Positions 4,491 to 21,860 of a stretch of DNA of 64,000 bases are shown here, piece by piece (position 1 is the first letter of the stretch; every line of letters begins with the position of its first letter). This DNA is from Alphaproteobacteria bacterium (lineage in GTDB: Bacteria > Pseudomonadota > Alphaproteobacteria > TMED109). The stretch spans positions 513,206 through 577,205 of the forward strand of contig CBDBIK010000005.1 of NCBI GenBank assembly GCA_965206145.1, given 5' to 3'. The notes under the pieces are model-generated. The model had not been told where the DNA came from. It saw nothing but the letters and a program-made list of their open reading frames with translations, and made no database searches. Made by a program: the position numbers and the translations under genes.

Positions 4491-4493
4491 CGT

Positions 4494-5146
4494 TCAGCCT
4501 TCCGGGCCCAGAAGACGCGCAAGCGCGCCCGCGAACGCCGCCGCGTCGTCCGCCCGGCGTCGAAGGTCGACTGCCGCGAAAAGACGCATCTGCCTAAGCG
4601 TCAGCCGCTCGCAGACGTCGTGATGGCCGGTTGCGTGGCCGGCGCGGACAAGTCCGTCGAGGACTTCTGCGATGCCGACAGGCTCGCCAGCATCTCCCGC
4701 CCCTGGAGAGCCCCGACGATCCTGCCCAAGATAAAATTTCGGTTTGCCGTCCACATCGCCGCCGACACGGACGTCGCGTCCGAGGCACCAAGGCGGCCGA
4801 CCCAGGCAACCTCGCGGTCGCACGCCCGGGCAATGAGCGCAAGCCATGTGTCAGCGTGCTCGGACAACACCTGGTCGATGACGTCAAGATCTTTCACCGG
4901 ACCCTCGCACCCGCCGGCAATGTCGGTCAGCGCATCAAGCAGCGGCTTCGATCGCCCCTGCAGCTCCAGCGCCTCGCGGAACCGGAACTCACGGACCGTG
5001 ATTCGTGTCATCTTCCCGGTGTCGGGATCGCGAACGTCAACGTCGACGTCCGGAAAGAGAATTGCCGCCGCCTCGTCGTCGTCCGGGGCCGGGGAGTCCG
5101 TCCCGCCGTTGGAAGCCGTCACGGTCGCGTCGCTGGTCGTCGGCAT
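4494..5146 (-). CDS. tail assembly chaperone, predicted -1 frameshift product (GT-like, about 217 aa)
   Basis: The -1 frame is open from 4847 down to a stop at 4494, just 4 nt before the tape-measure ATG. The heptamer A_AAT_TTT at 4739..4733 (minus) is correctly phased with the G frame. Confidence 0.5.
4601..5146 (-). CDS. tail assembly chaperone (G-like)
   Basis: In-frame ATG at 5146 (MPTTSDATV...) overlaps the major tail gene stop by 1 nt. Acidic protein located between the major tail gene and the tape measure. Confidence 0.7.
   Translation of the reverse strand: MPTTSDATVTASNGGTDSPAPDDDEAAAILFPDVDVDVRDPDTGKMTRITVREFRFREALELQGRSKPLLDALTDIAGGCEGPVKDLDVIDQVLSEHADTWLALIARACDREVAWVGRLGASDATSVSAAMWTANRNFILGRIVGALQGREMLASLSASQKSSTDLSAPATQPAITTSASG
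4733..4739 (-). promoter_or_regulatory. candidate -1 programmed ribosomal frameshift slippery heptamer AAATTTT
   Basis: The zero-frame codons read cgA AAT TTT atc, which is the X_XXY_YYZ pattern. The -1 frame continues KFYLGQDRRG..., matching ORF 4494..4847. Confidence 0.5.
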
Positions 5147-5964
5147 CAGCCGACAGACTCGCCGTCGATGACCAGAGCGGGCGCGCCTCCACCCGGCTCC
5201 TGGATCGCTGCAGTGAGCGGAATTTGCTGCTCGGCCGAGCGGCTCATCAACTGCATCTCGCCACTCGCAGCAAGACTGCATTTTCCTGCGTAAATGTCCC
5301 GCCCCTGCGCCCCGCGCTTCGCGCTCTCCAGGTAGCGCACCGCGACTAGTGTCGCCTGCGGGATCGTGTAGCTCTTCGCCTGCTGACGCTTTTTTGCCGC
5401 CGGCGTGTAATCGACGTAGATCGAGGAATCGTCGGCGATCCCCGTCGCATTCGGCTGGATGTAGACCCGCCCGCGAGACGCGTCCACCTCAAAGGATTCA
5501 TTGTTCGCGTTGGCGAGCGAATTTGCGTTCTTCTCCGTTGCCACGGCAACCGTGCTCTCCGTGACGGCACCGGCACCACGGGGGTTCTGGGCGGTCCGGC
5601 CAAGCTGATACCAGTGCCCGTGCTTGACCGCGATCTTCTCGTTGACGACCGCTGTGGTGTTCGCCGCCACCTCCGATGTCGTGCCGCCAACAAACAGCGC
5701 GAAGTTCTCGAGCGTCGTGTCGTGCAGCGTTAACCCCATCGTTCGGGTGATCTGCGTCAACTCATCGGCAAGCACCTGCGCCACTTCACCCGTCCCCGAG
5801 TAGATTTGTGTCCGCTCGCTCGTCACCGAAAGCGTCGCGCTGACGGCATCCCCCACGTAGCGCTCTCCAGTCGGGGCACTGTCGGCGTCGAGAACGTCGA
5901 TGAACAGTTCCCCTGAGCCCAGAACAATGTTGTTGGTGTGAATTTCAGGCGCGGTCTTCGACAT
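5146..5964 (-). CDS. major tail protein
   Basis: ATG at 5964 is preceded by GGGAGG (MSKTAPEIHTNNIVLGSGELF...). 272 aa, located immediately upstream of the chaperone pair. The upstream part of ORF 5146..6102 is an over-extension. Confidence 0.7.
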   Translation of the reverse strand: MSKTAPEIHTNNIVLGSGELFIDVLDADSAPTGERYVGDAVSATLSVTSERTQIYSGTGEVAQVLADELTQITRTMGLTLHDTTLENFALFVGGTTSEVAANTTAVVNEKIAVKHGHWYQLGRTAQNPRGAGAVTESTVAVATEKNANSLANANNESFEVDASRGRVYIQPNATGIADDSSIYVDYTPAAKKRQQAKSYTIPQATLVAVRYLESAKRGAQGRDIYAGKCSLAASGEMQLMSRSAEQQIPLTAAIQEPGGGAPALVIDGESVG

Positions 5965-6133
5965 GGCTACCTCCCTTTCTGGACGCGGACGCAGTGGACA
6001 CGAACTGCCCCTGCTCCTCGAGCCTCCGCACCTGCTCGGTGCTGAGCGTGACCTTCTCGCCCACCTCGTGCCGCTTGCCCTCCTGGACAAGCGGTTTCGC
6101 AAGCGTGCGGGTCACCAGTTTCGGTTCAGACAT
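5945..6133 (-). CDS. small hypothetical head-tail protein (62 aa)
   Basis: ORF track. GGAG lies upstream of the ATG at 6133. Short overlaps with both neighbours. Confidence 0.45.
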   Translation of the reverse strand: MSEPKLVTRTLAKPLVQEGKRHEVGEKVTLSTEQVRRLEEQGQFVSTASASRKGGSHVEDRA

Positions 6134-6575
6134 GAGCTACTCCTTCTCCCCCGGAAATCACCGTCCGGGTGCGGTACTCCTCGAGCCAGGCGACCCGACT
6201 CATTTCGATTTCCAGAAGCCGGCCGCGGACAAGACGGAACGGCTCCTCACAATCCTCCGGCGTCCACCCGAGGATCGCTCCGCGCGTGACCTCGATGGCA
6301 GCCGCGAGCTCGCCGCCGGCCTTCTCGCCGTGCGGATCGTCCGGAGCCGGAATCGACAAAGCCACGTTCGCAGTCAAGCGGACGTTCTGGATGGCTCCCG
6401 CACGACCGGCGAGGTTCTCGCCCGAATCGTCGAACGCCGGATACACGACCGCAGCCGGTTTTCCGAACTCGCGTTCCACCGCCGATGCTTCCAGGGCACC
6501 GAACACTTCGCCGAAGTAGCCCGTCTCCCGAAGACGCACGATCACACGCTCGATTACCGAGACACTGCCGGTCAT
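6126..6575 (-). CDS. head-tail joining/tail completion protein (hypothetical, 149 aa)
   Basis: In-frame ATG at 6575 (MTGSVSVIERV...) overlaps the upstream stop by 1 nt. Position is between the head-completion genes and the tail genes. Confidence 0.55.
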   Translation of the reverse strand: MTGSVSVIERVIVRLRETGYFGEVFGALEASAVEREFGKPAAVVYPAFDDSGENLAGRAGAIQNVRLTANVALSIPAPDDPHGEKAGGELAAAIEVTRGAILGWTPEDCEEPFRLVRGRLLEIEMSRVAWLEEYRTRTVISGGEGVAHV

Positions 6576-7087
6576 CACCGGCCCTCCCCGAGATGCTGGC
6601 TCACCACGCGGGCGATCATCGCCCGATCGTCCCTGGAGATGCCGAGGAACGGTCGCGCCGGGATTTCGCTTCCAGGATGCTCGACCTTCTTTACCGGATG
6701 GCGCGCACCCGGCCAGTAGAGCGCCTTGCGGCGCTTCGGCCGGATCGTCCGCGGCGGCGTCTTGCCGCCAAATTGATGAATCGCCGCGTAGACCACGTTG
6801 GTTCCGACCTCCACAGCGTCTGCCTGGAGACTGTGGGTGATCGAAGCGCGAAGCCGACCGGTGCCCGTGAGCGTCTGCCCGTTCTCGGCCTGCGCACGCC
6901 CCGACTTCGGCCACGGGGCACCGTCCGGGCCGTGCTCCAGCTCGAAGCGCCGCTCGACCGACAGCACCAGGCGACCGCCGATCTCGTCCAGGATCGGTGA
7001 GGGGTCTTCGATTTTCCCGACAAGGCGGCCAAACTGCGACCGGAACTCTTTGTCATCGAACCGGATTTCAACCCCCGCTCCAGCCAT
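6575..7087 (-). CDS. phage virion morphogenesis protein (Mu G-like / tail-S-like)
   Basis: Start at 7087 (MAGAGVEIRFDDKEF...). The stretch GTGRLRASIT...VGTNVVYAAIHQFGG...PARPFLG is typical of this family (memory-based). Confidence 0.65.
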   Translation of the reverse strand: MAGAGVEIRFDDKEFRSQFGRLVGKIEDPSPILDEIGGRLVLSVERRFELEHGPDGAPWPKSGRAQAENGQTLTGTGRLRASITHSLQADAVEVGTNVVYAAIHQFGGKTPPRTIRPKRRKALYWPGARHPVKKVEHPGSEIPARPFLGISRDDRAMIARVVSQHLGEGR

Positions 7088-7491
7088 TAGACTCCCTCCA
7101 GGTTGGTGGCGGTCATCACCGGAGCGTCCGGACATGTGCTGTCACGGACCTGGCGCACCGGGATCTCTACGCCTTGCTCGTCAAAGAGTGTCACGCTCCC
7201 GTCAACCAGGCCCTTGAGGGTTTTCCGCGCCTGGCGCGCGCGATCCCGCACGACGTCAGGCAGCTCACGGCCGTAAAGCCTCGCGCGTGCAATGTCGCAC
7301 GCAATCAGTCGCAACTGCGGATGCTCGTCACCGGCAAGCGGCAGAGCGAACGTCGAAGCGAGTTTGCCGTCGAGCTCGGCGTGCGTGTCCGCAAGCGCCG
7401 TCATCACCCGGCCGGACCTCGTATCGTCCAAACGTTGGATCTCGTCGGCCGAGAAACGAGCCTCCAAGTCCTCGCGGGTCGCATACGGCAC
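7087..7491 (-). CDS. DUF1320-like head protein (Mu gp36-like)
   Basis: 134 aa, MPYATREDLEARFSADEIQRL... is the typical DUF1320 N-terminus. Lies directly after the capsid gene. Confidence 0.65.
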   Translation of the reverse strand: MPYATREDLEARFSADEIQRLDDTRSGRVMTALADTHAELDGKLASTFALPLAGDEHPQLRLIACDIARARLYGRELPDVVRDRARQARKTLKGLVDGSVTLFDEQGVEIPVRQVRDSTCPDAPVMTATNLEGV

Positions 7492-7500
7492 CGCTAGGCC

Positions 7501-8445
7501 TCAGGCAACCGCGTTCTTGAAGTGGTATCCCGCTGCTTTCCAGGCGACGAGTTCCTTGACGCACTCCGTGACTTTGACGATCTCCGCACCGGCAACGCCA
7601 ATCGAATCGTCGTGGTAGGTCATCACCTGACGACCCATCCACTCCGCTGTGAAGCAGTAAGTGGGTTGTGCGCTCATGGCCCCGGAAACCGCAGGGTTCA
7701 GGTGGACCAGAGAGGCATGCTTACCCCATAGCCGCGTGTGGCTCGCATTCTGCCCCTTCGCCGCCGAGTTGTGGAAAGATCGTCCAATAATTATCCGGTC
7801 GAGCTCGAACAGCTCCGCCACCGCATCGCGCATCGCAAGGCCAGCAGCACCAGTGCCCGCACCCGAGCGCGCCGTAGCCTCGACGATCTTCGGGTGGCGC
7901 CGCAACGCCGTCCAAGAGGACTGCCCCAGCACCAGCGCGTTCGGCCTCAGTAACGGTTTGTCCATCGCCTCGGCGATCGATTTGATCGGGTCGCTGTTTG
8001 AATGCGACCACTGCGATGTGCCCGACAGCGTCGCTTGATGAGCTGTCTCGTAATTTCCAGCCGCAAACACCAGGTCTGCCACCCGTTTCTCGCGCGCCAG
8101 CGCCACCAGCGTCGAGGTATTCATCGTCGCCTCAGCCAGCGGATCCCAACTCGTCGAGCCGCTGCGGGCGACGTGGACGTCTTTCACCGGCACCGAGTCC
8201 TCAAGGCCGTGGTCTTCGGTCGATTCGGTCACGTGATCCGTGCCAAATTCCACCTGATTGGCTCGCGAACGGCGGCCGATCAGGGTTTCGGGAATCTTGT
8301 GAGTCTCGCCCGGGCGGCCCCGGGCGTATGTGAATTTCTCCGCGGGCACCATCACCCGCGGACACACCTCATCGGCGATCAGGCCCTCGGGTTTCACCGT
8401 CATCGCGATTTGGGTGAGGCGGGTTTCGATTGCAAAGGGGGGCAT
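7501..8445 (-). CDS. major capsid protein
   Basis: 314 aa. Position after protease/scaffold and the DUF2190 gene. Sequence resembles major capsid families of Mu-like and lambda-E-like phages (memory-based). Confidence 0.8.
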   Translation of the reverse strand: MPPFAIETRLTQIAMTVKPEGLIADEVCPRVMVPAEKFTYARGRPGETHKIPETLIGRRSRANQVEFGTDHVTESTEDHGLEDSVPVKDVHVARSGSTSWDPLAEATMNTSTLVALAREKRVADLVFAAGNYETAHQATLSGTSQWSHSNSDPIKSIAEAMDKPLLRPNALVLGQSSWTALRRHPKIVEATARSGAGTGAAGLAMRDAVAELFELDRIIIGRSFHNSAAKGQNASHTRLWGKHASLVHLNPAVSGAMSAQPTYCFTAEWMGRQVMTYHDDSIGVAGAEIVKVTECVKELVAWKAAGYHFKNAVA

Positions 8446-8463
8446 GTGCTTGTTCTCCTAGCT

Positions 8464-8826
8464 CTAGTAGCGCAGCGGTCGGACGTGAGCGCTGCCAATG
8501 TCGCCGGTCACACCGGCTCGATCGGCAACGCCAACGCACCAGTCGTTGGCCGTCGTTGTTGAAACGGCCTTGCCGTCGGCGGTCGCCTTCAAGCAGTCGC
8601 CGGCCGCGACAGTGCCGCCGTACTCGATCTCGGCGATGCCCTCGCGGTGCACGTCGAGACGGGCGTCGTCGGCAGCATCGATCGCGTGCGAGACCCCGAT
8701 TGGCGGCTTCGTCGCGTCCGAGGCCTCCTTTGCTTGGCCGGCCTTGGCACCGTGGATCACGATCCGGTGCGCCTTTACGGCACCGTCCGCAACGTGATTA
8801 GTGATCAGTGTGTCGTGTCGTGGCAT
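8464..8826 (-). CDS. DUF2190-like head decoration/cement protein
   Basis: 120 aa, located between the scaffold/protease gene and the capsid gene. Gly/Ala-rich beta-type sequence typical of DUF2190. Confidence 0.65.
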   Translation of the reverse strand: MPRHDTLITNHVADGAVKAHRIVIHGAKAGQAKEASDATKPPIGVSHAIDAADDARLDVHREGIAEIEYGGTVAAGDCLKATADGKAVSTTTANDWCVGVADRAGVTGDIGSAHVRPLRY

Positions 8827-10095
8827 CTAAGCCTCCCTCGTGTTGGTGTCGGCATTGGCGCGAACAGCATCGACCGCGGCGGCATACGTCACCGTCTCGT
8901 CGCGCTCGCGCGCCGTCTTCATGTAGGCCCGGGCCCGCGCAGCAACCCGCTCGTTAGCCAAGCGGTCGTCGGCAAGGGCACCGTCTTCGGACGGTGTGCG
9001 GGCAGGGTTCGAACGTTCGGCGTAGTCGACCCGCTTGTTGAGGCCGCCAACAAACTCGAGGAACCACTCACGCGGCGATGTTTCGATCCGGCCAGCGTCG
9101 GCCCCCGCGAACGAGAGCGTCGTCGCTCCGTCCCCGTCGCCGAGCGAGGTCAGGAACGCTACCGCCCCCGCCTTCTCACGCGGCAGAAGTCGCCCGTCCG
9201 AGATAGCTTTCTCGATCTCGGCTTCCGCCGCCGCGGTGCGCTCGCGCTCCGCGAACGCGGTCTCCTTCTCTGCGAGTCCCTTCTCGCGGGCGTCCAGTTC
9301 AGCCGTCCGCTCCTTGAGCGCGGCACTGGACGGTGAATCTTCCCGGCCTCCGGCCGGAGTCTTGTCGTCTTCGGGCATTTCTGCCTCCTTGTTGGTGTCG
9401 GTGATGTTATTGGTGTCGGTAGCCGGCGCTGCAGGTCCCCCCTCCGGGAGGTCAACGCGCTCGGAAAAATTGGTCGTCGCGTCGCCGGACACGTCGTCGT
9501 GGCCGTCCTCGCGGGCGGATGGTTCAATGCCCTCCAGTTGCCATGCGGGCACGATCCTGTCGGCCGTCTCCAGATCGTTGCTGTCGATGATCCACTCGCG
9601 CACGCTGCGCAACACCGCAGCAATCCGCCGGATCCCGTCCCGGAGGACGCCCTCGCTGGAGGCGAACTCGTAAGTCGCAAATGATGCAGGCGCCGCGAAC
9701 CGCGTCGGCGCCAGGCCGCTTACAGCCGGTGCCGCACCGCCCAGGAAGCCGATATGCCGCAGCGAGAAAGTGCCGTCCTGGCCCTTGAGTAGCGCCACCG
9801 AACGGCCGGCGTATCGACCCTCCTCGACCGCCTCGCGGAACGCCGGCGCAATGTCACGAAGTCGCGCCTGGAGGCGGTCGCCGACGCGTCGAATTCGATC
9901 GACCCAGCCGTAGGCCGGTGCGTCGTCCTCGGGGTGCCCGACGACAACCGGGACCGGATCCTGATCAGCGTAGTTGGAGACGATCCCGTCGAGAGTCGCC
10001 GCGTCAAAACTGTTTTTGGAGCCGCGCATGTCGGTGTGGGTGCCCGCTCGGAACACATCGAACCACCCATCAAGTGCGCTGAACTTCGCAGGCAT
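8827..10095 (-). CDS. head maturation protease / scaffold protein (Mu I-like)
   Basis: 422 aa. The N-terminal domain (FDVFRAGTHTDMRG...VVVGHPEDDAPAYGWV) resembles Mu I/GPO-type proteins. The middle is acidic and the C-terminal half is helical. First gene of the minus-strand late arm. Confidence 0.7.
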   Translation of the reverse strand: MPAKFSALDGWFDVFRAGTHTDMRGSKNSFDAATLDGIVSNYADQDPVPVVVGHPEDDAPAYGWVDRIRRVGDRLQARLRDIAPAFREAVEEGRYAGRSVALLKGQDGTFSLRHIGFLGGAAPAVSGLAPTRFAAPASFATYEFASSEGVLRDGIRRIAAVLRSVREWIIDSNDLETADRIVPAWQLEGIEPSAREDGHDDVSGDATTNFSERVDLPEGGPAAPATDTNNITDTNKEAEMPEDDKTPAGGREDSPSSAALKERTAELDAREKGLAEKETAFAERERTAAAEAEIEKAISDGRLLPREKAGAVAFLTSLGDGDGATTLSFAGADAGRIETSPREWFLEFVGGLNKRVDYAERSNPARTPSEDGALADDRLANERVAARARAYMKTARERDETVTYAAAVDAVRANADTNTREA

Positions 10096-10100
10096 CGATC

Positions 10101-10121
10101 CGCCTCCGATGGTCGGAGGCG
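10101..10121 (-). promoter_or_regulatory. perfect 9-bp hairpin that sequesters the Shine-Dalgarno of the protease/scaffold gene
   Basis: The mRNA reads CGCCUCCGA-CCA-UCGGAGGCG followed by GAUCG-AUG. The GGAGG sits in the 3' arm and pairs with CCUCC in the 5' arm. Confidence 0.5.
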
Positions 10122-10150
10122 AATCGTGAGAGAGAACTAAGTGGACGTAA

Positions 10151-10167
10151 AGGTGACAGGTGTCACA
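10151..10167 (-). promoter_or_regulatory. 17-bp late-operon motif TGTGACACCTGTCACCT (copy 1), putative activator site/late promoter element
   Basis: Identical 17-mer, in the same orientation relative to the downstream genes as the copy at 20466..20482. Contains the dyad GTGACA-N2-TGTCAC. There are 55 nt between the motif and the protease/scaffold ATG. Confidence 0.5.
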
Positions 10168-10447
10168 GGAAGAACAAGCCCGATCGAACAGCCTGACGGG
10201 GTGGAAACGTCTGCGATTTCAGTTCATTCAGACCAGCGTTTCACGTTGCTCTCCCGGAACCAGAAGAAGCGAGAACCAGTCATCGTTGTAGAAGCAAGGA
10301 GAGCAACAAGTAGTCAATCCCGGAGTCCGAACCCCGACCGCATGGAGGAACCCTCAACCAGCATGTGGAGGATTTGAACGCGCTTATCTAGGGGCAATCC
10401 GTCCATACCTCTATGTGAAATTATTTGCTTACCTTCAAGAAAAATGT

Positions 10448-11641
10448 TCACTTAATACGCGGTTCAAAGTCGGGGGTGGGGTAGATCTCATCGTTCGTGG
10501 CGAACGAAATTCCGATTAGCTGCTCCAATGTCTCATCCGAAAGTGCGATGTCAGATTTAAATTCATCAACCCTGTATCGCCCACTTTCGAAAACTAGCTC
10601 AGCAACCCGCCGCAGCAACATTGGTTCCTCAAACGGTAAAGCACGCTGCCCCTTATCCAGGGGCTCAACAGTGCGCCACCTCTTATATGAAATTTGCTTG
10701 TAAACATTTGTGATCTGCTGTTCATCGAATAGCCCCAAATTTTTGCAGCGATAAACCATCGCTTGAATCGACACCTTCCACCTGGCCTTAAGGTCAACGA
10801 AAGCTTCTGCTTTGGGCGCGTAAACTTCGTTTGGAAACGATTTTCTAGGAAGCAGAAACGCTCCGGCAAAATGATCTGCCTCTGTCTCTATTTGCTTAAG
10901 TCGATCTTTATCCTCGATCTCTTCACGGCCGACCCATCGATGCAAACAAAGGTGCCCGAGTTCATGAGCGGCATCGAACCTAGCCCGCGCTGCGCTTTCT
11001 TTGTCAGATGCCAAAAATACAAATGGGCGGTCGCCAGCCCAATAGGAAAACGCCTCCACTTTTTCACCGGTCATCCGGAACCGGCAGGTAATGACGCCCT
11101 TCGATTCAATCAGGCGGAGTACATTGGAAATAGGGCCGAGTCCTAATCCAAAGTGCTTTCTAGTCTCCTCTGCCATACCCTCGATTTCTTCCTCGGTATA
11201 GGCCGAGGAAGTCGAATCATGCGGCTCAAACTGAGGAATATCGATGGGGGGAAAGTTGGCGATTTCGTTGAATGCATATGCAACGCTGGAAAACCAATCC
11301 GCCAATACCTCGCACGCTCGATTCCTCCGCTTGGTATCAGGTCCGATTTTTCGAAAAAAATTGGCACTATGTTCTCCGAAGGTCCAACGCTCACTTCTTG
11401 TAAAAAATGCTACCGGTTGCCCCAAAGCATCTGCCATTTTCCCCATAGTGTTCGGCACAGGGAATTTGGTCCCACGCTCATAAGCGGACACCGCCTGACG
11501 GCTTACGCCAATTCGATTAGCAAGCTCTGTTTGTGTAAGGAGCGCCACTTGCCGAGCTTCGGTGAGGCGCTGCGGAATCAAAAGCCGCCCAGAAGCGCTT
11601 CCTTGAGCGGCGTTCGGGAAGTGGACGATATTGTTAGCCAT
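10448..11641 (-). CDS. XRE-family HTH fused to ImmA/IrrE (COG2856) zinc metallopeptidase
   Basis: Start taken at ATG 11641 (MANNIVHFPN...), which overlaps the upstream stop as ATGGCTAA. HTH segment is QTELANRIGVSRQAVSAYERG. HExxH motif is AAHELGHLCLH, with a downstream EADHFAGAFLLP. Lies in the low-GC island. Confidence 0.85.
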   Translation of the reverse strand: MANNIVHFPNAAQGSASGRLLIPQRLTEARQVALLTQTELANRIGVSRQAVSAYERGTKFPVPNTMGKMADALGQPVAFFTRSERWTFGEHSANFFRKIGPDTKRRNRACEVLADWFSSVAYAFNEIANFPPIDIPQFEPHDSTSSAYTEEEIEGMAEETRKHFGLGLGPISNVLRLIESKGVITCRFRMTGEKVEAFSYWAGDRPFVFLASDKESAARARFDAAHELGHLCLHRWVGREEIEDKDRLKQIETEADHFAGAFLLPRKSFPNEVYAPKAEAFVDLKARWKVSIQAMVYRCKNLGLFDEQQITNVYKQISYKRWRTVEPLDKGQRALPFEEPMLLRRVAELVFESGRYRVDEFKSDIALSDETLEQLIGISFATNDEIYPTPDFEPRIK

Positions 11642-12353
11642 CGCCGTTATCCCGCCGCCACTTCTCAATGTCCTCTTTAAGCAACTCAAGATCATCTAGG
11701 GCAGAATCGGTATCCTCTGTGGCTGGCCCGTCCGACAAAATTTCGTGCGGAATATTCATTAGATTCGGAGAACGCCAAGAGTACCGTGTTTTCGAAACAT
11801 GAGACGGAACGGCGAAATGCGCAAAATTTAGCGTCTGATGACCATGGATAAGCAGAAAGTGCGGCAAGCCAGCAATTATCTTTTCTTCTTCAAATTCCGG
11901 CAGATCGAATGCGGGCTGGTTGTTTAGCCGTGCGTTCTCCCGAAACACAACATTTCGCGGCTGCCGGGCGGGATTCGCGACTTGACTCACTGAGGCCGTC
12001 GAATGCGAAAACCGCAGTTCGAGAAAGCGGCCAGTGGGACTTGCAAAATCTCGCCAACGGAAATCGCAATCCAAGGCACCAGTCTCGATAGCCCGGAGTA
12101 AAGACCAATCAACTGCATACGAAATCACGCGTCCCTTGTTATCCTGAGCACTTTCCACTTGGAGAATTGGGCTGTCTTTTACGAGTTCATCCACGGCGGT
12201 ATAAGCCGACGTCAAAACGGTAGGTATCACAGGCCATTGTGACTGCGGAACTTGGTCTTTGATGAAATCTTCGAGCCTCGTCACGGCTATTCCTCGAATT
12301 GGTTGCTTAGAATTGGTTGCTTGAGTCCATGCGCAACTGTATACGATTTTCAA
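11634..12353 (-). CDS. hypothetical protein, 239 aa, no recognisable domain
   Basis: ORF track. Same low-GC composition as the downstream gene and translationally coupled to it. I could not identify any motif. Confidence 0.65.
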   Translation of the reverse strand: MKIVYSCAWTQATNSKQPIRGIAVTRLEDFIKDQVPQSQWPVIPTVLTSAYTAVDELVKDSPILQVESAQDNKGRVISYAVDWSLLRAIETGALDCDFRWRDFASPTGRFLELRFSHSTASVSQVANPARQPRNVVFRENARLNNQPAFDLPEFEEEKIIAGLPHFLLIHGHQTLNFAHFAVPSHVSKTRYSWRSPNLMNIPHEILSDGPATEDTDSALDDLELLKEDIEKWRRDNGDG

Positions 12354-12439
12354 TATCTTTTGTCAACTAACTCTTCTTTCCCCACCTCTTTTCTGCCGCT
12401 TTCGCGGCCTTACTTCTTGCCGTCGTCCGGGGCTACGTC

Positions 12440-13183
12440 TCAGCCCAGAGTCTTCGCCATCCACACAACCTCGCCAATCACGTCGGCGTCGCGAGGCCAC
12501 GGTAGGTCCTTCCACGCCGGATGGTCGCTAACGAGCAGCCAGGACTTGCCATCCTTTCGTGCCCTCTTGACTATCAGTCCGTCTTCCGTGCGCACCACGA
12601 AGATGTGCTTGTCCCGACGCCGGTTGCGATGCTTCGCGACGAGAATCGAGCACTTGTCCGGAAGCGTCGGCTCCATCGACTCGCCGCGCACTCGGATGAC
12701 CACGCATTCCGACGCGATCAGCGCGTGCAGGTTGAGCCAGGCGCGCCGGAACGCGAGGCGCCCTCGGACTGGAGCGTCCTCAATGTGAGAGCCCCCGCCG
12801 GCGGAAGGCTCCACCTCCAGCATCTCAATGTAGCGTTTGCTCGGATCCTCCTCACCGCTCCCGTCAACCGGCGCCACCATGGATTTGGTCGCTGCCAATG
12901 CCTGCCCATGGAGGCGATCGAGTTCAGCTCGCACCTCGCTAAGCCGGTCGTTTAGCGCGGCTCCGGGTTCCTCGCGGGGGGGACCAACGTAAAGTTCGAG
13001 CCCTAATGCATCGCAGATCTCAGCTGTCCGTACGAGTGAGGGAATATGCCCCTCTAGCGCACTTTGAACGCTACGAGTGGGAAGCTTGCTCCGAATCGCC
13101 AATGCACGCACGGATAGCCCTTGCCTATCTAACGCGGCGCGGGCCGTGGTTACGAATTTCTGATAGGCATTCACAGTAGGCAA
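12440..13183 (-). CDS. CI/LexA-like prophage repressor (HTH + S24 peptidase domain)
   Basis: N-terminal HTH (LSVRALAIRSKLPTRSVQSALEG). C-terminal S24 signature VRGESMEPTLPDKCSILV...LIVKR. Divergent from the early operon. TTG (13183) or GTG (13174) start. Confidence 0.85.
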   Translation of the reverse strand: MPTVNAYQKFVTTARAALDRQGLSVRALAIRSKLPTRSVQSALEGHIPSLVRTAEICDALGLELYVGPPREEPGAALNDRLSEVRAELDRLHGQALAATKSMVAPVDGSGEEDPSKRYIEMLEVEPSAGGGSHIEDAPVRGRLAFRRAWLNLHALIASECVVIRVRGESMEPTLPDKCSILVAKHRNRRRDKHIFVVRTEDGLIVKRARKDGKSWLLVSDHPAWKDLPWPRDADVIGEVVWMAKTLG

Positions 13184-13228
13184 TATCTAGCCCATATCGC
13201 AGAGAGTCCATGCTTGGCCATATTTCGC

Positions 13229-13263
13229 TTGACACGGGCGAATGATTGCCTAATTTTGGCAAT
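13229..13263 (+). promoter_or_regulatory. putative early promoter (TTGACA-16 nt-TAATTT) with overlapping operator-like inverted repeat ATTGCC-N7-GGCAAT
   Basis: -35 at 13229-13234 and -10 at 13251-13256. Inverted repeat at 13245-13250 / 13258-13263. Further GGCAAT/GGCCAT copies lie at about 13179 and 13215. The predicted TSS falls at or next to the ATG at 13264. Confidence 0.4.
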
Positions 13264-13551
13264 ATGTCGCCCACAGATTTGACTCGATTGATCGAACTCA
13301 TGGCCACCAGGCTGCAACGCAGTCCGGGGACGATCGGCCGCTGGGTCGGAACCAGCGGTGATTTCTACGGGCGTCTCAAGAGCGGTCACGACATCACCAC
13401 GAACCGTGCCGAACGCATCGTGCAGAAGCTTTCCGAACTCTGGCCGGAGGAGCTCTCGTGGCCCTCCGACATTCCTCGCCCCGTGATTCGTCCATCCGCC
13501 GGCAAACCTCGCCGTTCGGACGCGTCCAGGCAAGCGAGGAAAGTCGCCTGA
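13264..13551 (+). CDS. small early protein, putative Ner/Cro-analogous regulator (by position)
   Basis: Internal ATG of ORF 13246..13551 (MSPTDLTRLIELMATRLQRSPGTIGRWVG...). First gene of the rightward early operon, opposite the repressor. Confidence 0.5.
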   Translation: MSPTDLTRLIELMATRLQRSPGTIGRWVGTSGDFYGRLKSGHDITTNRAERIVQKLSELWPEELSWPSDIPRPVIRPSAGKPRRSDASRQARKVA

Positions 13552-13567
13552 TGGCGCGGCGGACGGC

Positions 13568-13879
13568 ATGACCACTACCGGGAAGATGCATGCGGTGGCA
13601 GATCCAGCAGCGTCCTCACCCGACCGGGATGCGTGGATCGCGCGGGGCAAACGTCTTTCCGAATCCGGCTCGGAGCGGCAGTGGGAGTTTGCTGACTGGG
13701 CGTTTGAGGGGATGGGGGCATTCGGATCGGAGACGGTCCGGGAGATCGCCTCCCGTCTTGGAATATCCCCTGGATTTTTGAGCACATGTACTGCCATATC
13801 AAGAGCTTACCCTTTGTTTCGCCGGCGAAACACCCTTGGATTTTCACAGACGAAGCTCCGCCGGTGGCCCGCGCGATGA
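13568..13879 (+). CDS. HTH protein, truncated paralogue of the 14160..14864 gene (possibly decaying)
   Basis: WEFADWA...ETVREIASRLGISPGFLSTCTAISRAY..RRR.TLGFS aligns with WELGDLA...SLRETARRIGMSPEKLIRFSSTAKAF..RRRFTLAIS of the downstream gene. Stops 16 codons after the palindrome-encoded RRR motif. Confidence 0.5.
   Translation: MTTTGKMHAVADPAASSPDRDAWIARGKRLSESGSERQWEFADWAFEGMGAFGSETVREIASRLGISPGFLSTCTAISRAYPLFRRRNTLGFSQTKLRRWPAR
13815..13832. repeat. palindrome TGTTTCGCCGGCGAAACA (variant member of the early-region palindrome family)
   Basis: Read directly. Encodes the FRRRN segment of the 13568 gene. Followed by CCCTTGGATTTTC, similar to the flanks of the other copies. Confidence 0.7.
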
Positions 13880-13912
13880 GCGCGGGCTCCCGCCGTGTTG
13901 TCGTCATCGACG

Positions 13913-13957
13913 GGTCCGGAGGTGAATCGCCGGCGATTCACCCCCTGGAAATCCGGA
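13913..13957. repeat. about 45-bp direct repeat, copy A, containing the perfect 22-bp palindrome GGTGAATCGCCGGCGATTCACC (13921-13942)
   Basis: Read directly. Matches 14111..14155 with about 4 mismatches. Lies 17 nt upstream of the tRNA-like gene. Confidence 0.85.
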
Positions 13958-13974
13958 GAGTTCTTTCTCCGATC

Positions 13975-14053
13975 GCCCAGGTAGCTCAGCTGGTAGAGCA
14001 CGCGGGCTCATGCGCCTGCGGTGTCGGCGGTTCGATCCCGCCCCTGGGCACCA
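13975..14053 (+). tRNA. tRNA-like gene with CAU in the anticodon loop and a non-canonical (3 nt too long) anticodon arm
   Basis: Hand fold. Acceptor GCCCAGG/CCTGGGC is perfect. U8 is present. D arm GCTC-AGCTGGTA-GAGC. T arm GGCGG-TTCGATC-CCGCC. Discriminator A and an encoded CCA. The anticodon arm CGCGGGC-TCATGC-GCCTGCG is 20 nt instead of 17. Confidence 0.55.
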
Positions 14054-14110
14054 TCCCGCCGCCGCCGGACTCTCTCGGAAAATCTGTCTCCTTGACCAAC
14101 GTTGTCAGTG

Positions 14111-14155
14111 GGTCAGAGGGTGAATCGCCGGCGATTCACCCCCTGGAAATTCGGA
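14111..14155. repeat. about 45-bp direct repeat, copy B, containing the 22-bp palindrome (14119-14140)
   Basis: Read directly. Lies 57 nt downstream of the tRNA-like gene and ends 5 nt before the start of the 14160 gene. Confidence 0.85.
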
Positions 14156-14159
14156 CCGC

Positions 14160-14864
14160 GTGAGCGTCCCCGCCCGCATTCTACGGGGCAGCCTGCTGGA
14201 TAAGCGGCTGGAGCGCTGCCGGCAGCTTGTCGGGTCGCGCCAGGCGGCTGCGTGGGAACTGGGCGACCTTGCCAACACCATTGCTGAGGAGGACGGCGTA
14301 TCGCTCCGGGAGACTGCCCGCCGGATCGGGATGTCCCCCGAGAAATTAATCCGGTTTTCAAGCACGGCCAAAGCTTTTGAGGTGAATCGCCGGCGATTCA
14401 CCCTTGCCATTTCGGTACATGCGGAGGTGCGCGGCCTGCCGGCATCAGAGGCCGACGTCTTCCTCGACCGGATCGAGGCGGGTGAGTTGTCCCGCTCGGA
14501 GCTGCGCGCTGCCGTCCAGGAGAGGACGACCCGGGGCCGCATCCAGGAGCTTGAGCGCGAATGCGCAGAGCTACGTCAGCGGGTATCGAGGGTGCCGGCA
14601 TCACCGGAGGAGGCGTCCGACATGGCGGCGGCGGCGCATTCCCGGGTCCGTTCGGCCTGCAAGCTCGTCCATCGCTCGTACCGCGACGCGGCGCGGATTG
14701 CCGCCGAGGTCGTGGGGAATACCGCTCTCATGGGAGCCCTTCACGGCAACCGGCGCAACGCCCTGCGCATGGCGCTGGAGCGCGAGTTCGATGGTGCTGC
14801 TGTTCGTCTTGAGGAGACGAGGCGGGAAATGCTCGCACCGCTGTTCGACGGGCCCGACCGGTGA
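14160..14864 (+). CDS. early HTH DNA-binding protein with coiled-coil C-terminus (ParB/KorB-like HTH...LxxSxHxE pattern)
   Basis: 234 aa. Contains GVSLRETARRIGMSPEKLIRF...RRRFTLAISVHAEV. GTGA overlap with the transposase start. Lies directly upstream of the transposase. Confidence 0.65.
   Translation: MSVPARILRGSLLDKRLERCRQLVGSRQAAAWELGDLANTIAEEDGVSLRETARRIGMSPEKLIRFSSTAKAFEVNRRRFTLAISVHAEVRGLPASEADVFLDRIEAGELSRSELRAAVQERTTRGRIQELERECAELRQRVSRVPASPEEASDMAAAAHSRVRSACKLVHRSYRDAARIAAEVVGNTALMGALHGNRRNALRMALEREFDGAAVRLEETRREMLAPLFDGPDR
14381..14402. repeat. 22-bp perfect palindrome GGTGAATCGCCGGCGATTCACC, copy C (inside the 14160 gene, encoding VNRRRFT)
   Basis: Read directly. Confidence 0.85.
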
Positions 14865-16723
14865 GGTCGTTGGCCTCGCTCCGGCCGGTCCTTGCAAGGT
14901 CGATGCAGGACATCTGCAATGGCCCTGCACCGGCTGTGCAGGAGCCTTGCGCGGCCCCGCAGGAGCTCCCCCAGGCATCGGCCTGGGAGAGTGCAACGGA
15001 CGCGGGCCGTGCCCGTGCCTACACCCGCCTGGACGCGGTCGCCCGTAGCGACGCACTCGTGACCGAAGGGCTACCTCGCAGTGCCGCCGATGTACAGGCG
15101 GCGCGCGAGCGCGGCGTGTCACGCTCGGCTCTCGCAGGCTGGCGCGGCCGCATCCGGGGTGTCGCCGTCGGCGAGCGCCTTGCCGCACTCCTCGACCGTC
15201 CAGGGCGGGGCCGTCCGCGGAAGAACGAGTGGGCAGGGCTGGGAGCCGATGAGCTCTGGCGCCACTGGTCCAGCGACTATCTCCGTGAGGAGGCTCCCGA
15301 CGCGGCGGCGGTGCACCGGCGGCTCATGCTAATCGCGAGTGAGCGCGGCTGGGGCTGTCCCTCGCTGCGGGCGTTCACGCGGAGGACGGAGCGCGAAATA
15401 CCGAAGGCGGAGCGGGTGCGTGCGCGCCAAGGCGCGGTCGCGGCTCTTGATCTTCATCCTTACCAAACCCGCACGGTCGCGGGCCTGAAGCCGCTTGAAA
15501 TCGTCAACGGTGATGGTCGGCGCCATGACGTCATCGTGCGCTTTCCCACCGGTCGTCAGGGGCGTCCCGTTGTCTGGATGTGGCAAGACATCCGCACCCG
15601 CCGAATTCTTTCCTGGAGGATCGGAGAGACAGAGTCGTCCGATCTCGTTCGAACTGCACTCCACGAGCTGATCGTGGCGCATGGCGTTCCCGAGCGACTT
15701 GTGGTCGACCAGACGCTGGCGGCGTCGTCGAAATTTCTCACCGGCGGCATGTCGGGGCGCAAAAGATGGCGTTCGACGGGCGAGGAGTTACTGGGGATCC
15801 TCGCGCTGCTGGAGATACAGTACAGCCCGACGGCGGTGGATACGGACGCAGGCGGCCGAGGGAAAGGCCGGGGACGTTCCAAACCCGTCGAACGTGCCTT
15901 TGGCGACCTCGCGCGGCAGGTTGACACGCACCCGCTGTTGGTTGGTGCTTACACCGGCCGCTCGACCCAGGACCGGCCTGAGACGCACCGCACCAACGTC
16001 GTCGCCCTCGAGACTTTCGCGACGGTGCTCACGGCGGCGGTTGCCGAACACAATGCCCGCCCGGGCCGGCGGACCGAAGCTGCGGCGGGACGCAGCTTCG
16101 ACCAGGTCTGGGCCGAGGAGATCAAGGGCGCGGCCGTGCGCCGCATGACGCAGGCGCAGGCGTCGGTACTGCTACTCGCCGCCGAGGACGTGACGGTCAA
16201 CGCGGACGGCACATTCACACTTCGGTGCGGGCGTGGGGCGCGGATGCCAGTCAACCGCTACCACTCGCCCGCATTGGTCGAGCGGGCGGGCCAGAGCCTG
16301 GTTGCCCGCTTCGACCCGGGCGAGCTCCACGGCGCTGTCTACCTCCACGTCCGGGACGGCCGCTACATCGGCCGCGCGGAGTGCGTGCTCCCCGTTGGAT
16401 TCGCCGACGCTGGCACCGCTCGCCGGCACGAGGCGGCGCGCCGGGATCTCCGCCGCGCCGCCGAGCGTGGCCTTCGGGCGAGGCGCGACCTGGAGGAGCT
16501 CGCCCGGGCGCACCGGGACCTGCCGTCTCCGCCTGCGCCGAACGATCCTGCTTCAGGTGTTGTCCGCTTGGTCGCAAACGGTTCCCTTCCTCAGTTGCCG
16601 TCGCCAAATCCGGGATCGGATCCGGTGACGTCCGCCGCCACCAAGACGGCCCCGTCCCGTCCGCGGCGAGGAGTCGCGGCGGCTCTTCGCATCATTCAAT
16701 CCCAGAAGGACTCTGATTTATGA
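14861..16723 (+). CDS. Mu-type DDE transposase (MuA-like)
   Basis: 620 aa. Integrase-core-like region (EIVNGDGRRHDVIV..., VVDQTLAASSKF..., SKPVERAFGDL). C-terminal Mu-transposase-like region. Followed by a MuB-like gene with an ATGA overlap. Confidence 0.85.
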   Translation: MRSLASLRPVLARSMQDICNGPAPAVQEPCAAPQELPQASAWESATDAGRARAYTRLDAVARSDALVTEGLPRSAADVQAARERGVSRSALAGWRGRIRGVAVGERLAALLDRPGRGRPRKNEWAGLGADELWRHWSSDYLREEAPDAAAVHRRLMLIASERGWGCPSLRAFTRRTEREIPKAERVRARQGAVAALDLHPYQTRTVAGLKPLEIVNGDGRRHDVIVRFPTGRQGRPVVWMWQDIRTRRILSWRIGETESSDLVRTALHELIVAHGVPERLVVDQTLAASSKFLTGGMSGRKRWRSTGEELLGILALLEIQYSPTAVDTDAGGRGKGRGRSKPVERAFGDLARQVDTHPLLVGAYTGRSTQDRPETHRTNVVALETFATVLTAAVAEHNARPGRRTEAAAGRSFDQVWAEEIKGAAVRRMTQAQASVLLLAAEDVTVNADGTFTLRCGRGARMPVNRYHSPALVERAGQSLVARFDPGELHGAVYLHVRDGRYIGRAECVLPVGFADAGTARRHEAARRDLRRAAERGLRARRDLEELARAHRDLPSPPAPNDPASGVVRLVANGSLPQLPSPNPGSDPVTSAATKTAPSRPRRGVAAALRIIQSQKDSDL

Positions 16724-17724
16724 GCACTCAGAATCAATTCGATCATCAGGACGACGGTGGCAACATCGTCGCCCTGCCCGGCACCGGGCGGATCTCTCAA
16801 GCTTCGCTCGTCGCGGACTGCCGCGACGAGATGGAGGCTGCGGGACTGTCGATTCAGCAGGCAGCGCGGGAGATCGGTCGCGGTGTGAGCAGTGCCACCC
16901 TCTCCAAATGGCTCCGCGACAGATATGAGGGCGATGTGGGAGCGGTCTCGAAGCGCATCGAGACGTGGATCGAGACGCGGCGCGAGCGCGCTCGCCGGGC
17001 GATCGGCGGCGCGGGTCTCGACCGCCATGCATCCCTTCAAGTCACGGCCGACATCGAGGCCGTCCTCGGTCACGCTCAAGCCGCCGCCGACGTCGTCCTG
17101 GTTCACGGCCGGAGTGGTGCCGGTAAGAGCTGGGCGAGCCGTCGCTACTGCGGATCTCGCACCGCTGCCCACTTTGTCGTCGCGACGGGGGCGGTGACGA
17201 CGCTCTCCGGTCTTCTTGGCCGGGTCGCCGACGCGGTCGGTGGAGGCGCACGTCACGTCTCAGCCCTGGCGGCCGAGAGCGTGGCGGTCGCCCGCCTCAG
17301 GGACCGCGGTGCCCTCCTCGCAGTCGACGAGGCGCATCACCTGTCCGCTCGCCTCTTGGACGAGCTCCGTTGCATCCGTGACATGGCGGGATGCGGCCTC
17401 GCCCTGATTGGCGGCGACGAGTTGTGGACGCGGTTGGCATCCTCGCCGCATTGCGACCAGATCGTCGGGCGAATTGGGATTCGCCTACCGGTGGGCAGGG
17501 TCTCGGAGACCGACGTCCGAGAGCTAGGCGGGGCGGTCCTGGGCCGCGAGACCGCGGCACGAGAGACGCGCCTCCTACTCGCTTCGGCGCAGGCCGCCGG
17601 TGGGCTGCACGCGCTGCGCCGACTCCTTGTACGTGCGTGGATTCATGCCAAGGCAGAGGGTCGCGCCACCACCGTCCAGGCAGAAGACCTGACGGCGGCC
17701 GCCGAGGAAGGAGGCGCGCCATGA
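16720..17724 (+). CDS. MuB-like AAA+ ATPase (DNA transposition protein B)
   Basis: N-terminal HTH (LSIQQAAREIGRGVSSATLSKWL). Walker A is VHGRSGAGKS and Walker B-like is LLAVDEAHHL. Confidence 0.8.
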   Translation: MSTQNQFDHQDDGGNIVALPGTGRISQASLVADCRDEMEAAGLSIQQAAREIGRGVSSATLSKWLRDRYEGDVGAVSKRIETWIETRRERARRAIGGAGLDRHASLQVTADIEAVLGHAQAAADVVLVHGRSGAGKSWASRRYCGSRTAAHFVVATGAVTTLSGLLGRVADAVGGGARHVSALAAESVAVARLRDRGALLAVDEAHHLSARLLDELRCIRDMAGCGLALIGGDELWTRLASSPHCDQIVGRIGIRLPVGRVSETDVRELGGAVLGRETAARETRLLLASAQAAGGLHALRRLLVRAWIHAKAEGRATTVQAEDLTAAAEEGGAP

Positions 17725-18014
17725 TCGTGCTACGCGAAAACGGTGCAGACCGCAGGATCGAGGCTGCGGTGTCCGGCGCGGACCTTCTCGTTCTGCGCCG
17801 GCTCGCGGACCGGCCGGCGGAGGCGGTGGTATCGACTGTCGAATTGGCCAGACCTGCGGACACAAGTCCGGCCCGGATGCTGGTTCGCCTGCGCAAGCTC
17901 GAGAAGGAGTTTCTGGTCAGCAGCATATCGCTATCAGGCGGCCTGGGGGTCGGCTGGACGTTGACGAATCTCGGCCAAACAGTTGTCGGCCGAGCCGAGG
18001 AGGCCGGAGCATGA
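17721..18014 (+). CDS. small winged-helix-like protein (97 aa)
   Basis: ATG at 17721 forms an ATGA overlap with the MuB-like stop (MIVLRENGADRR...LVRLRKLEKEFLVSS). Internal start of ORF 17391..18014. Confidence 0.5.
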   Translation: MIVLRENGADRRIEAAVSGADLLVLRRLADRPAEAVVSTVELARPADTSPARMLVRLRKLEKEFLVSSISLSGGLGVGWTLTNLGQTVVGRAEEAGA

Positions 18015-18259
18015 GCGGCCCGCATGTCGCGGGGCCCCCGCCGGGCGCACGGATTCGTTCCTGGATCGCAGACCAGCGCCTCGAGTTCAACACTCCGACG
18101 GAGCGGGTGGAGTGGGTCGAAAAGTGTGCTGCACTGTTCGAGCTCGCCGATGAGCTGGACTCCGTCGAAGAGATCCCCGACGGCGGCCCCAGTAGGCCGC
18201 CCATCCCTGATCGGGAGCAGGTTCTTGCCTTTCGACCTTTCGACGGGAGATCCAAATGA
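18011..18259 (+). CDS. hypothetical early protein (82 aa)
   Basis: ORF track. ATGA overlap with the upstream gene. Confidence 0.45.
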   Translation: MSGPHVAGPPPGARIRSWIADQRLEFNTPTERVEWVEKCAALFELADELDSVEEIPDGGPSRPPIPDREQVLAFRPFDGRSK

Positions 18260-18356
18260 GCGTGACTCTTGAACGCCGCCGTCGTCGTCGCTGTCGCTGC
18301 TTCGTCGCTCGTCAGATCCGTTGGTGGCTCCGCATCACTTTGAGGAGGAGGAGCTC

Positions 18357-18878
18357 ATGAGCGGCACAAAGATTGCCCTTGGCGAGGTCGCCGACCTCGC
18401 CAAGACCTACGCCAGGGAGCGCGGTGCGCTCCAGGACGTGGTTGACGACATCCACGACGATCAGCGTGCGATTCTCCGAGCCCGCAAGAGGTCCCTGCAA
18501 GCAGCGGTGGTGCGCGCCTCGGCCGCGAAGGACGCGCTCCGTACCGCAATCGATGGATCGCGGGCGCTCTTTGAGAGACCTCGGACGCAGACCTGCGACG
18601 GGGTGAAGTTTGGGTTGCGAAAGTTGCCCGGGCGGATCGATCTTGGCGATGAAGCGCAGGTCATCACCCGCATCCGCAGGAAGCTACCGAACCGCGCGGA
18701 CGACCTTGTAAGAGTACGCGAATCATTGGCCAAGCCAGCCCTGCGCAACCTTGATGCCCGCTCGCTCGCCGCGATCGGGGTGCAGATCGATGATGTCGCA
18801 GACGAGATCATCATCGCCGCGGCGAGCGACGATCTCGACAAGCTGGTGGCAGCTTTGCTGCCAGACGAGGAGGTCTGA
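18357..18878 (+). CDS. Gam-like host-nuclease inhibitor (memory-based similarity to Mu Gam architecture)
   Basis: ATG at 18357 preceded by GGAGGAGGAG. N-terminal coiled coil, then GVKFGLRKLPGRIDLGD...VRVRESLAKPAL...GVQIDDVADEIII, which parallels the Mu Gam C-terminal half. Confidence 0.55.
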   Translation: MSGTKIALGEVADLAKTYARERGALQDVVDDIHDDQRAILRARKRSLQAAVVRASAAKDALRTAIDGSRALFERPRTQTCDGVKFGLRKLPGRIDLGDEAQVITRIRRKLPNRADDLVRVRESLAKPALRNLDARSLAAIGVQIDDVADEIIIAAASDDLDKLVAALLPDEEV

Positions 18879-18880
18879 GC

Positions 18881-20461: not shown

Positions 20462-20465
20462 AACA

Positions 20466-20482: not shown

Positions 20483-20516
20483 GTTCTTGCGCGCGCGGTC
20501 GCGGCACCATCAGCTC

Positions 20517-21857: not shown

Positions 21858-21860
21858 AGC

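Follow-up and report, generated by a model that had tools for sequence, protein, structure and literature searches.

A probable RosmerTA module in the remnant of an IS1-family transposon behind the repressor of a Mu-like prophage

A low-G+C island downstream of the prophage repressor

The sequence analysed here, hereafter the window, is a 64,000-nucleotide stretch of an alphaproteobacterial genome of the GTDB lineage TMED109 (GenBank assembly GCA_965206145.1, contig CBDBIK010000005.1, positions 513,206 to 577,205). Directly downstream of the gene for a prophage repressor, and in the same orientation, it carries two minus-strand open reading frames (ORFs), 11634–12353 and 10448–11641/11695; the two overlap by 8 nt, ATGGCTAA, which holds the stop of the first and the start codon of the second. 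The first encodes RmrT and the second RmrA (Table 1). The island that they form is very probably an intact RosmerTA module, composed of an RmrT effector and its co-translated RmrA partner; this is an already published toxin–antitoxin (TA) and anti-phage family, not a new system.

The island stands out from its surroundings by composition. The G+C content of the 2.1-kb segment from about 10335 to 12432 is about 50%, versus 65–66% in the flanks (0.499 for positions 10380–12439, 0.647 for 5000–10100, and 0.662 for 12440–17500), and the third-codon-position G+C is 0.51 in both rmrT and rmrA, compared with 0.69–0.76 in the repressor, capsid, and MuA genes; the adjoining repressor gene, at 0.69, is phage-like. 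The G+C content of the pair was also lower than that of the flanks in 19 of 20 related loci. A first-pass annotation made from the sequence alone had described a low-G+C two-gene island on the basis of hand counts. Both ORFs, their overlap, and a contrast of about 15 points are real, while the absolute values came out a few points higher when computed. Its proposal that the island was acquired horizontally is supported by this contrast and by the transposon homology presented below, and by composition the island is foreign to the phage.

At the DNA level, homology to complete elements in three related loci (L006, L007, and L019) stops exactly at 10335/10336, and the imported DNA spans from about 12432, where its upstream border is defined by the remnant of a small transposon gene, down to exactly 10335. 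Apart from a local hairpin at 10096–10126, the spacer beyond it resembled neither the related loci nor any other part of the window. A late head-tail promoter had been placed at about 10150; the automatic scan detected no promoter-like site of the sigma-70 type in 10096–10334, and the position resembles a rearrangement junction.

Table 1. Features of the island and its borders in the window
Feature	Coordinates	Strand	Basis
Spacer of 239 bp from the transposase stub to the head-protease start codon, probable rearrangement junction	10096..10334		
Whole imported low-G+C segment: cargo slot of an IS1-family transposon with stubs of the two flanking genes	10335..12432	-	G+C, DNA homology
5' remnant (first 24 codons, MDGLPLDKRVQILHMLVEGSSMRS) of the IS1-family transposase gene following rmrA	10335..10406	-	tblastn
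rmrA, antitoxin/regulator, 397 amino acids (aa), start overlaps rmrT stop	10448..11641	-	PADLOC RmrA, Pfam
rmrT, toxin/effector, 216 aa, GTG 12284, Shine-Dalgarno GAGGA 12295-12291	11634..12284	-	PADLOC RmrT
Candidate RmrA operator: palindrome GTTGC-N12-GCAAC 12337-12316 and tandem AAGCAACCAATTC	12296..12337	-	conservation
Cassette sigma-70-type promoter: -35 TTGACA 12366-12361, 17-nt spacer, -10 TATACA 12343-12338	12338..12366	-	sequence, conservation
3' remnant (21 codons ending in SKAAKAAEKRWGKKS and a stop) of the small transposon gene preceding rmrT	12367..12432	-	sequence
Prophage CI/LexA-type repressor, N-terminal helix-turn-helix (HTH) and Peptidase_S24	12440..13183	-	Pfam, PHROGs

The longest rmrT ORF, starting at TTG 12353, would encode 239 aa, the length given in the first-pass annotation. 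This start was rejected, since the homologues are 212–219 aa long with alignments beginning at residue 1, the match to the PADLOC RmrT profile sets in at residue 26 of the 239-aa version, the GAGGA motif is located 6 nt upstream of GTG 12284, and TTG 12353 sits within the spacer of the cassette's own promoter. The true start is therefore most likely GTG 12284. For rmrA, the start at 11641 was favoured over the longer ORF reaching 11695 because an identical 397-aa called gene product is present in a public protein collection.

Identification of the pair as RosmerTA

RosmerTA was described in 2022 as a defence system with a Zn-peptidase antitoxin (Millman et al., bioRxiv 10.1101/2022.05.11.491447), and both proteins of the island match its PADLOC profiles over their full length. 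RmrT was recognised by PDLC03938 (E 2.9e-95, profile positions 4–214 of 215) and, less strongly, by two other PADLOC RmrT profiles, and RmrA by PDLC03952 (E 4.7e-184, positions 3–383 of 395). RmrA comprises an XRE HTH domain (residues about 22–80; Pfam HTH_3, E 2.1e-09), an M78 Zn-peptidase domain (about 179–300; Peptidase_M78, E 4.2e-21) with HELGH at residues 226–230, and about 100 uncharacterised C-terminal residues; it is also a member of phrog_2439 (PHROGs, E 9e-101). The PADLOC profiles for capP (E 8e-22) and capH (E 4e-04) matched it far more weakly than the RmrA profile.

The island thus holds the parts by which RosmerTA is recognised, namely a Zn-peptidase antitoxin with an N-terminal XRE HTH, an upstream partner of a recognised RmrT family, and an adjacent, co-oriented, conserved arrangement of the two. 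The earlier reading of the second gene as a 397-aa fusion of an XRE-type HTH to an ImmA/IrrE peptidase with HELGH is borne out, as is the defence- or TA-type architecture of an effector translationally coupled to such a fusion. The upstream protein had been described as lacking any known domain, which holds for Pfam, PHROGs, and NCBIfam, none of which returned a match, and fails for PADLOC. The suggestion of a candidate novel module has to be dropped: standard defence-annotation profiles find the pair at once, and it should not be carried forward as such.

A pattern scan for RmrT, using one genome per species, returned 27 loci, all in Alphaproteobacteria, and in all 27 an RmrA homologue (50–69% identity) begins within a few bases of the RmrT stop. 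The co-occurrence check proposed in the first-pass annotation was thereby run with a positive outcome. RmrA also lies directly downstream of RmrT in L030, in L031, and on a Zymomonas plasmid, where a 33%-identical RmrTA pair is found beside Abi and RelBE genes. An exhaustive profile search placed RmrT in a subfamily of 262 clusters at 50% identity, nearly all of them stand-alone proteins of about 215 aa. Related loci are mostly outside prophages, and the closest relatives (81% identity) occupy unrelated contexts. Between rmrTA and these relatives the nonsynonymous divergence (dN) is 0.12 and the synonymous divergence (dS) is saturated, which indicates purifying selection on the pair.

One of the 81%-identical relatives (L031, 733–1809) is located directly downstream of a TniB/AAA_22 ATPase gene, suggesting that elements of the Tn5053/Tn7 type or the Mu type carry the pair as cargo too. 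Disrupted copies were seen as well: an insertion of about 4.2 kb splits rmrT in L024 (10001–14835), and the tblastn matches to rmrT and/or rmrA are fragmented in L020 and L027, suggesting frameshifts.

Conserved promoter and putative operator

The repressor upstream of the pair was identified by Pfam (Peptidase_S24, E 2.7e-16) and PHROGs (phrog_4 repressor, E 2e-24). The placement of the pair directly behind it, as reported in the first-pass annotation, is correct for the window. A conserved linkage was rejected, since the S24 repressor adjoins the pair in none of the 27 related loci, and the position is specific to the source genome of the window.

What is conserved upstream of rmrT is a promoter. 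We compared the 160 nt upstream of the gene in 25 regions, a span conserved throughout; TTGACA was found in all 25, at 63–82 nt from the start codon, and its distance to a TAT-type -10 element was mostly 17 nt (TTGACA-17-TATNNN). The automatic promoter scan reported no promoter upstream of rmrT; it missed this one because it required T at the last -10 position. Just after the promoter, and at the same place in 17 of the 25 regions, lies a palindrome of the form G(G)TTGC-N(about 12)-GCAAC, overlapped in the window by the tandem duplication of AAGCAACCAATTC (12322–12310 and 12308–12296). The cassette promoter is probably autoregulated by RmrA through this putative operator, and the conserved promoter and palindrome provide a concrete, testable autoregulation site for an RmrA protein. 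No intrinsic minus-strand terminator was reported by the automatic scan between the repressor gene and rmrT, and read-through from the repressor promoter is possible; it is not required, since the pair carries its own promoter and putative operator and therefore need not depend on the repressor transcript.

Predicted structure of RmrT

An AlphaFold model of RmrT, built with 110 diverse sequences in the alignment, reached a predicted local distance difference test (pLDDT) score of 90 and a predicted template modelling score (pTM) of 0.79. The model combines a helical bundle at the N-terminus, two three-stranded sheets with helices between them, and a helix at the C-terminus. A profile search of PDB sequences with RmrT gave no match. 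Three Foldseek searches, in which two RmrT models were compared with PDB and one with BFVD, yielded no match below E 0.04, and the best matches in PDB had template modelling scores of at most 0.24. Since there is no significant fold match, the activity of RmrT cannot be named.

The sub-threshold Foldseek matches were repeatedly PD-(D/E)xK nucleases (McrC, CinB, RecU, R.BspD6I, and Kpn2I). The residues conserved across the RmrT family are Y28, D/E59, S/T98, S100, Q101, P109-R110, F114-R115, H147-G148, F154, E190, and K203; they contain no D...(D/E)xK triad, and RmrT is for this reason not called a nuclease. The protein is soluble and acidic (isoelectric point 5.0), without a hydrophobic or membrane segment (maximum Kyte–Doolittle value 0.94). 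Our best guess would be an enzyme of the cytosol whose substrate bears phosphate, for example a nucleic acid or a nucleotide. Having a confident predicted fold and no solved relative, the subfamily may represent a new toxin activity.

Transposon origin of the island

About half of the related loci hold the pair as the cargo of an IS1-family transposon. Such loci contain four genes between inverted repeats GGTAGTGNNTCAGTTTGAAA, which are 3.2–3.4 kb apart; 12 of the 27 loci have the repeat at both ends and 18 have it at one end at least, and perfect 8-bp target duplications flank the element in L003, L004, L007, L022, and L024. IS1 itself has ends beginning with GGTGATG/GGTAATG and generates duplications of 8–9 bp. 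The small gene preceding rmrT ends in KGGxARAxxLTPExRxEIAxKAAxKRW in at least 13 related loci. The gene following rmrA is an ORF of about 294 aa that passes the Pfam DDE_Tnp_IS1 gathering score (26.5–32.5 bits versus 24.1) and matches the NCBIfam IS1 model at E 1.5e-19, below the cut-off of that model.

Both flanking genes have left stubs in the window (Table 1). According to tblastn, the transposase stub is 75–86% identical to the N-termini of the ~294-aa ORFs in L006, L007, L009, and L019, and 53–81% identical in eight or nine further loci. Comparison with the complete elements shows the island to be the presumptive remnant of such a transposon, which brought in the pair as cargo; since then its inverted repeats have gone, together with most of the small gene and the whole transposase gene apart from 24 codons. 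No terminal repeat GGTAGTGNNTCAGTTTGAAA was found in the window within three mismatches, nor was a second copy of the transposon. Lacking its terminal repeats, the window copy is no longer a transposon and is immobile, and the decay has fixed the cargo just after the stop codon of the repressor gene.

A complete element is present, for instance, in Mesorhizobium sp. M0587 (L007, 9373–13657). Complete transposons also carry a second inverted-repeat pair, TATGCTTAGCGnnAAGCA / TGCTTGACnCTAAGCATA, one copy upstream of the small gene and the other just upstream of the transposase gene (L007, 9439–9457 / 11808–11826; L004, 9516–9533 / 11828–11845). This second pair may serve both transposon genes as a common regulatory site.

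Proposed function and alternative explanations

In the proposed working, RmrA would bind GTTGC-N12-GCAAC over the cassette promoter and keep expression low. By analogy with other RosmerTA members, it would hold RmrT harmless; its loss or inactivation, lethal in other members, would then be lethal here too. Phage infection or another stress would disturb RmrA and release RmrT, and the freed toxin would halt the cell or the phage before progeny are produced, so that the lysogen population and the carrier element would be protected.

Several points weigh against this picture. That RmrT is toxic, that RmrA neutralises it, and that the pair defends against phages are extrapolations from RosmerTA members with toxins unrelated to the RmrT of the window. 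The Foldseek searches with the RmrT models were not significant (best E 0.16 in PDB and 0.045 in BFVD), and the candidate RmrA operator, with its presumed function, was assigned from conservation alone. Finally, the prophage looks rearranged and may be defective, in which case protection of the lysogen may serve only the host.

It is possible, but in our view unlikely, that the pair is mainly an addiction module, stabilising the transposon and now the prophage by post-segregational killing rather than acting against phages. Its travel in a transposon with inverted repeats and target duplications would agree with such a role, as would the essentiality of rmrA where tested and the TA pairs reported as integral to Tn3-family transposons (PMC7157771). 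However, RosmerTA members provide measurable phage defence, and sister transposons hold AbiD, GmrSD/HEC-06, SoFic, and PD-Lambda-2 in the same slot; the presence of these classic defence genes indicates defence as the selected function of the cargo. Addiction and anti-phage roles are not mutually exclusive.

Considerably less probable is that the cassette is an inactive, unexpressed relic, a transposon fragment stranded at a rearrangement junction. Both transposon ends are indeed lost, the order of the prophage genes is disrupted, and the pair is pseudogenised elsewhere (L020, L024, and L027), but in the window both ORFs are full length with respect to the PADLOC profiles, the HELGH motif, Shine–Dalgarno sequence, promoter, and palindrome are all intact, and a cell would not tolerate a toxin gene whose antitoxin no longer worked.

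The idea that RmrA is a prophage switch, an anti-repressor of the ImmR/ImmA or CapH/CapP kind with the upstream protein as a phage accessory factor, is very improbable: the resemblance of its peptidase region to CapP (PDB 7t5t, E 2.8e-04) and of its HTH to ICEBs1 ImmR (7t8i, E 0.003), the capP match in PADLOC, and the position beside the repressor are outweighed by RmrA profiles that score about 160 orders of magnitude better than capP, by the fusion of HTH and peptidase in one protein, by the absence of this repressor from 27 of 27 loci carrying the pair, mostly outside prophages, and by the foreign composition and own promoter and putative operator of the pair.

Comparison with related systems

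Considered as a RosmerTA module, the pair shares with the systems of Millman et al. (2022) the toxin-first operon, the Zn-peptidase antitoxin, and carriage by mobile elements; it differs in its RmrT subfamily, of about 216 aa and from Alphaproteobacteria, and in its location, the remnant of a transposon downstream of the repressor of a Mu-like prophage. The RmrT toxins that partner RmrA-type antitoxins are diverse, and a phage-borne RosmerTA protects against coliphages (Ernits et al. 2023, PMC10440598). The RosmerTA of Gordonia phage Kita, whose toxin was validated as membrane-depolarising and which gives narrow anti-phage defence (PMC10440598), likewise consists of a phage-borne RmrA-type ImmA-peptidase antitoxin with the toxin upstream. 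The Kita toxin's C-terminal region is predicted to be membrane-localised, whereas the RmrT of the window has no hydrophobic segment and a predicted alpha/beta fold, and the two toxins are unrelated.

RipAB (Spr1630/Spr1629) of S. pneumoniae belongs to the Rosmer family, and DnaN appears to be the target of its toxin (PMC12795458). Its antitoxin also has an XRE N-terminus and an ImmA-like C-terminus and shows rmrA-like essentiality; the NCBIfam model "spr1629 family repressor/antitoxin" matched the RmrA of the window with E 2.8e-59 (201 bits, below the cut-off of 335). RipA acts on the sliding clamp in a ClpX-dependent manner, and no similarity between RipA and the RmrT of the window was seen. 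In several Pectobacteriaceae rmrA is essential, and ClpX is essential precisely in the strains that carry RosmerTA. RosmerTA is also common in phages and counts among the systems enriched in their genomes.

ImmR/ImmA of ICEBs1, DdrO/IrrE, and CapH/CapP likewise combine an XRE-type HTH with an M78/COG2856 metallopeptidase as a stress-responsive switch, but their repressor and protease are separate proteins and their output is the transcription of another operon. In the RmrA of the window the two domains are fused in one polypeptide, strictly coupled to a single upstream effector gene, and the pair has no regulated effector operon besides rmrT.

A possible family of small IS1-type carriers

A metagenome scan for the terminal repeat GGTAGTGNNTCAGTTTGAAA returned at least 120 loci. 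Among the matches listed are about 19 repeat pairs with perfect flanking duplications of 8 bp (9 bp in one case), complete elements of 2.8–3.5 kb with other cargo in the same slot, and copies resembling miniature inverted-repeat transposable elements (MITEs), 136–621 bp long, with terminal repeats and no genes. The slot holds a different RmrA (E 3e-55) paired with an unrelated protein of 208 aa in L035; a HigB-like toxin, PD-Lambda-2_B (E 1.6e-48), and a 160-aa protein in L064; PD-Lambda-2_B in L120; a P63C-domain protein in L054, with a similar 365-aa ORF in L065, the latter unscanned; GmrSD/HEC-06 (E 5.5e-158) in L109; AbiD (E 4.5e-73) in L123, which has no transposase; and SoFic (E 3.8e-45) in L144.

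We tentatively suggest, with somewhat less than even confidence, that the island is a decayed copy of an undescribed family of small IS1-type transposons with a swappable defence or TA slot and MITE-like derivatives. The proposed layout is GGTAGTGNNTCAGTTTGAAA, a small gene with the KRW tail, the cargo slot, an IS1-family transposase gene, and the second repeat, with 8-bp target duplications; the slot would accommodate two RosmerTA variants, PD-Lambda-2-like systems, AbiD, GmrSD/HEC-06, SoFic, and P63C-domain proteins. If this is true, the family would offer a minimal means by which single defence systems move among chromosomes, plasmids, and phages, and would extend the list of known defence carriers by a very small class (Tn7-like elements, integrons, satellites, and prophages). 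Defence genes are known as cargo of Tn7-like elements (Benler et al. 2021, PMC8649781), and Tn3-family transposons are likewise reported to carry TA cargo (PMC7157771). The carrier proposed here differs from both in being an IS1-family element of about 3 kb with a single slot between the small gene and the transposase gene. No paper on IS1-family carriers of defence cargo was found in the literature searched, with ISfinder outside the comparison, and the newness of the family is uncertain.

The carrier layout was seen in genomes (L003, L004, L006, L007, L013, L018, L019, L021, L022, and L024) and, among the metagenome matches listed, in L035, L054, L064, L065, L072, L109, L119, L120, L123, and L144. 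Among the genome copies a few exceed the usual size, reaching 7.6 kb in L024. Gene-less short elements of 136–910 bp (L040, L053, L057, L069, L103, L105, L107, L113, and L115), most with perfect 8-bp target duplications, resemble MITE derivatives.

The host prophage and its apparent rearrangement

The element that holds the island looks like a rearranged Mu/B3-like prophage. To the right of the repressor gene, and divergent from it, the plus strand carries an early region with MuA (Pfam DDE_2, E 1.4e-48, with HTH_Tnp_Mu_2 and Mu-transpos_C), a MuB-like ATPase, and a Gam-like protein; PHROGs returned a match to the phrog_296 transposition protein for this gene set. Further right are the small and large terminase, portal, and MuF-like protein F (25745–27028) genes. 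After the end of the MuF gene at 27028 come host-type genes, including DUF2461, an ORF that we take, from its GCFWG motif, to be MsrA-like, and a symporter, with the G+C content falling to 0.57–0.61.

The minus strand, from 10095 down to 95, encodes protease, scaffold, major head, adaptor, neck, tail tube, chaperone, tape measure, and minor tail proteins. This is also their order in phage B3, where the protease-to-tail genes come straight after portal, F, and G and share their strand. The window does not have this collinear order (terminase, portal, F, protease, scaffold, capsid, tail on one strand); its head-tail genes are on the wrong side and strand. The two blocks of the split prophage cover 95–10095 (minus) and 13246–27028 (plus), with junctions near 10100–10335 and 27029–27840. 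This is consistent with inversion of a block of about 17 kb (about 10.1–27.1 kb) relative to the B3 order, or with a mis-assembly, and the RosmerTA remnant lies at one breakpoint of the inverted block. The transposase stub facing the protease gene has the layout that intramolecular replicative IS transposition would leave; since no second copy remains, inversion by IS1 is only a model, and at the presumed breakpoints at 10.1 and 27.1 kb no second transposon copy, terminal repeats, or shared sequence were found. The prophage is probably defective. Scans of IMG/VR with the MuA transposase and the head protease gave no match, and no tRNA attachment site was found near the island.

Between the repressor and MuA genes, a 46-nt repeat occurs three times (13912–13957, 14110–14155, and 14372–14417), each copy containing the perfect 22-bp palindrome GGTGAATCGCCGGCGATTCACC; the 64 kb hold no further copy of the repeat (0 expected by chance). 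These repeats are candidate operator or enhancer sites. An ARAGORN "tRNA-???" call with a 4-base anticodon (13975–14053, plus strand) falls between two of them and is probably a false positive caused by the repeats. Just upstream of MuA, the ORF at 14160–14864 on the plus strand matched an LmbU-family transcriptional regulator model (E 2e-12, below the cut-off), an unusual match for a Mu-like early gene.

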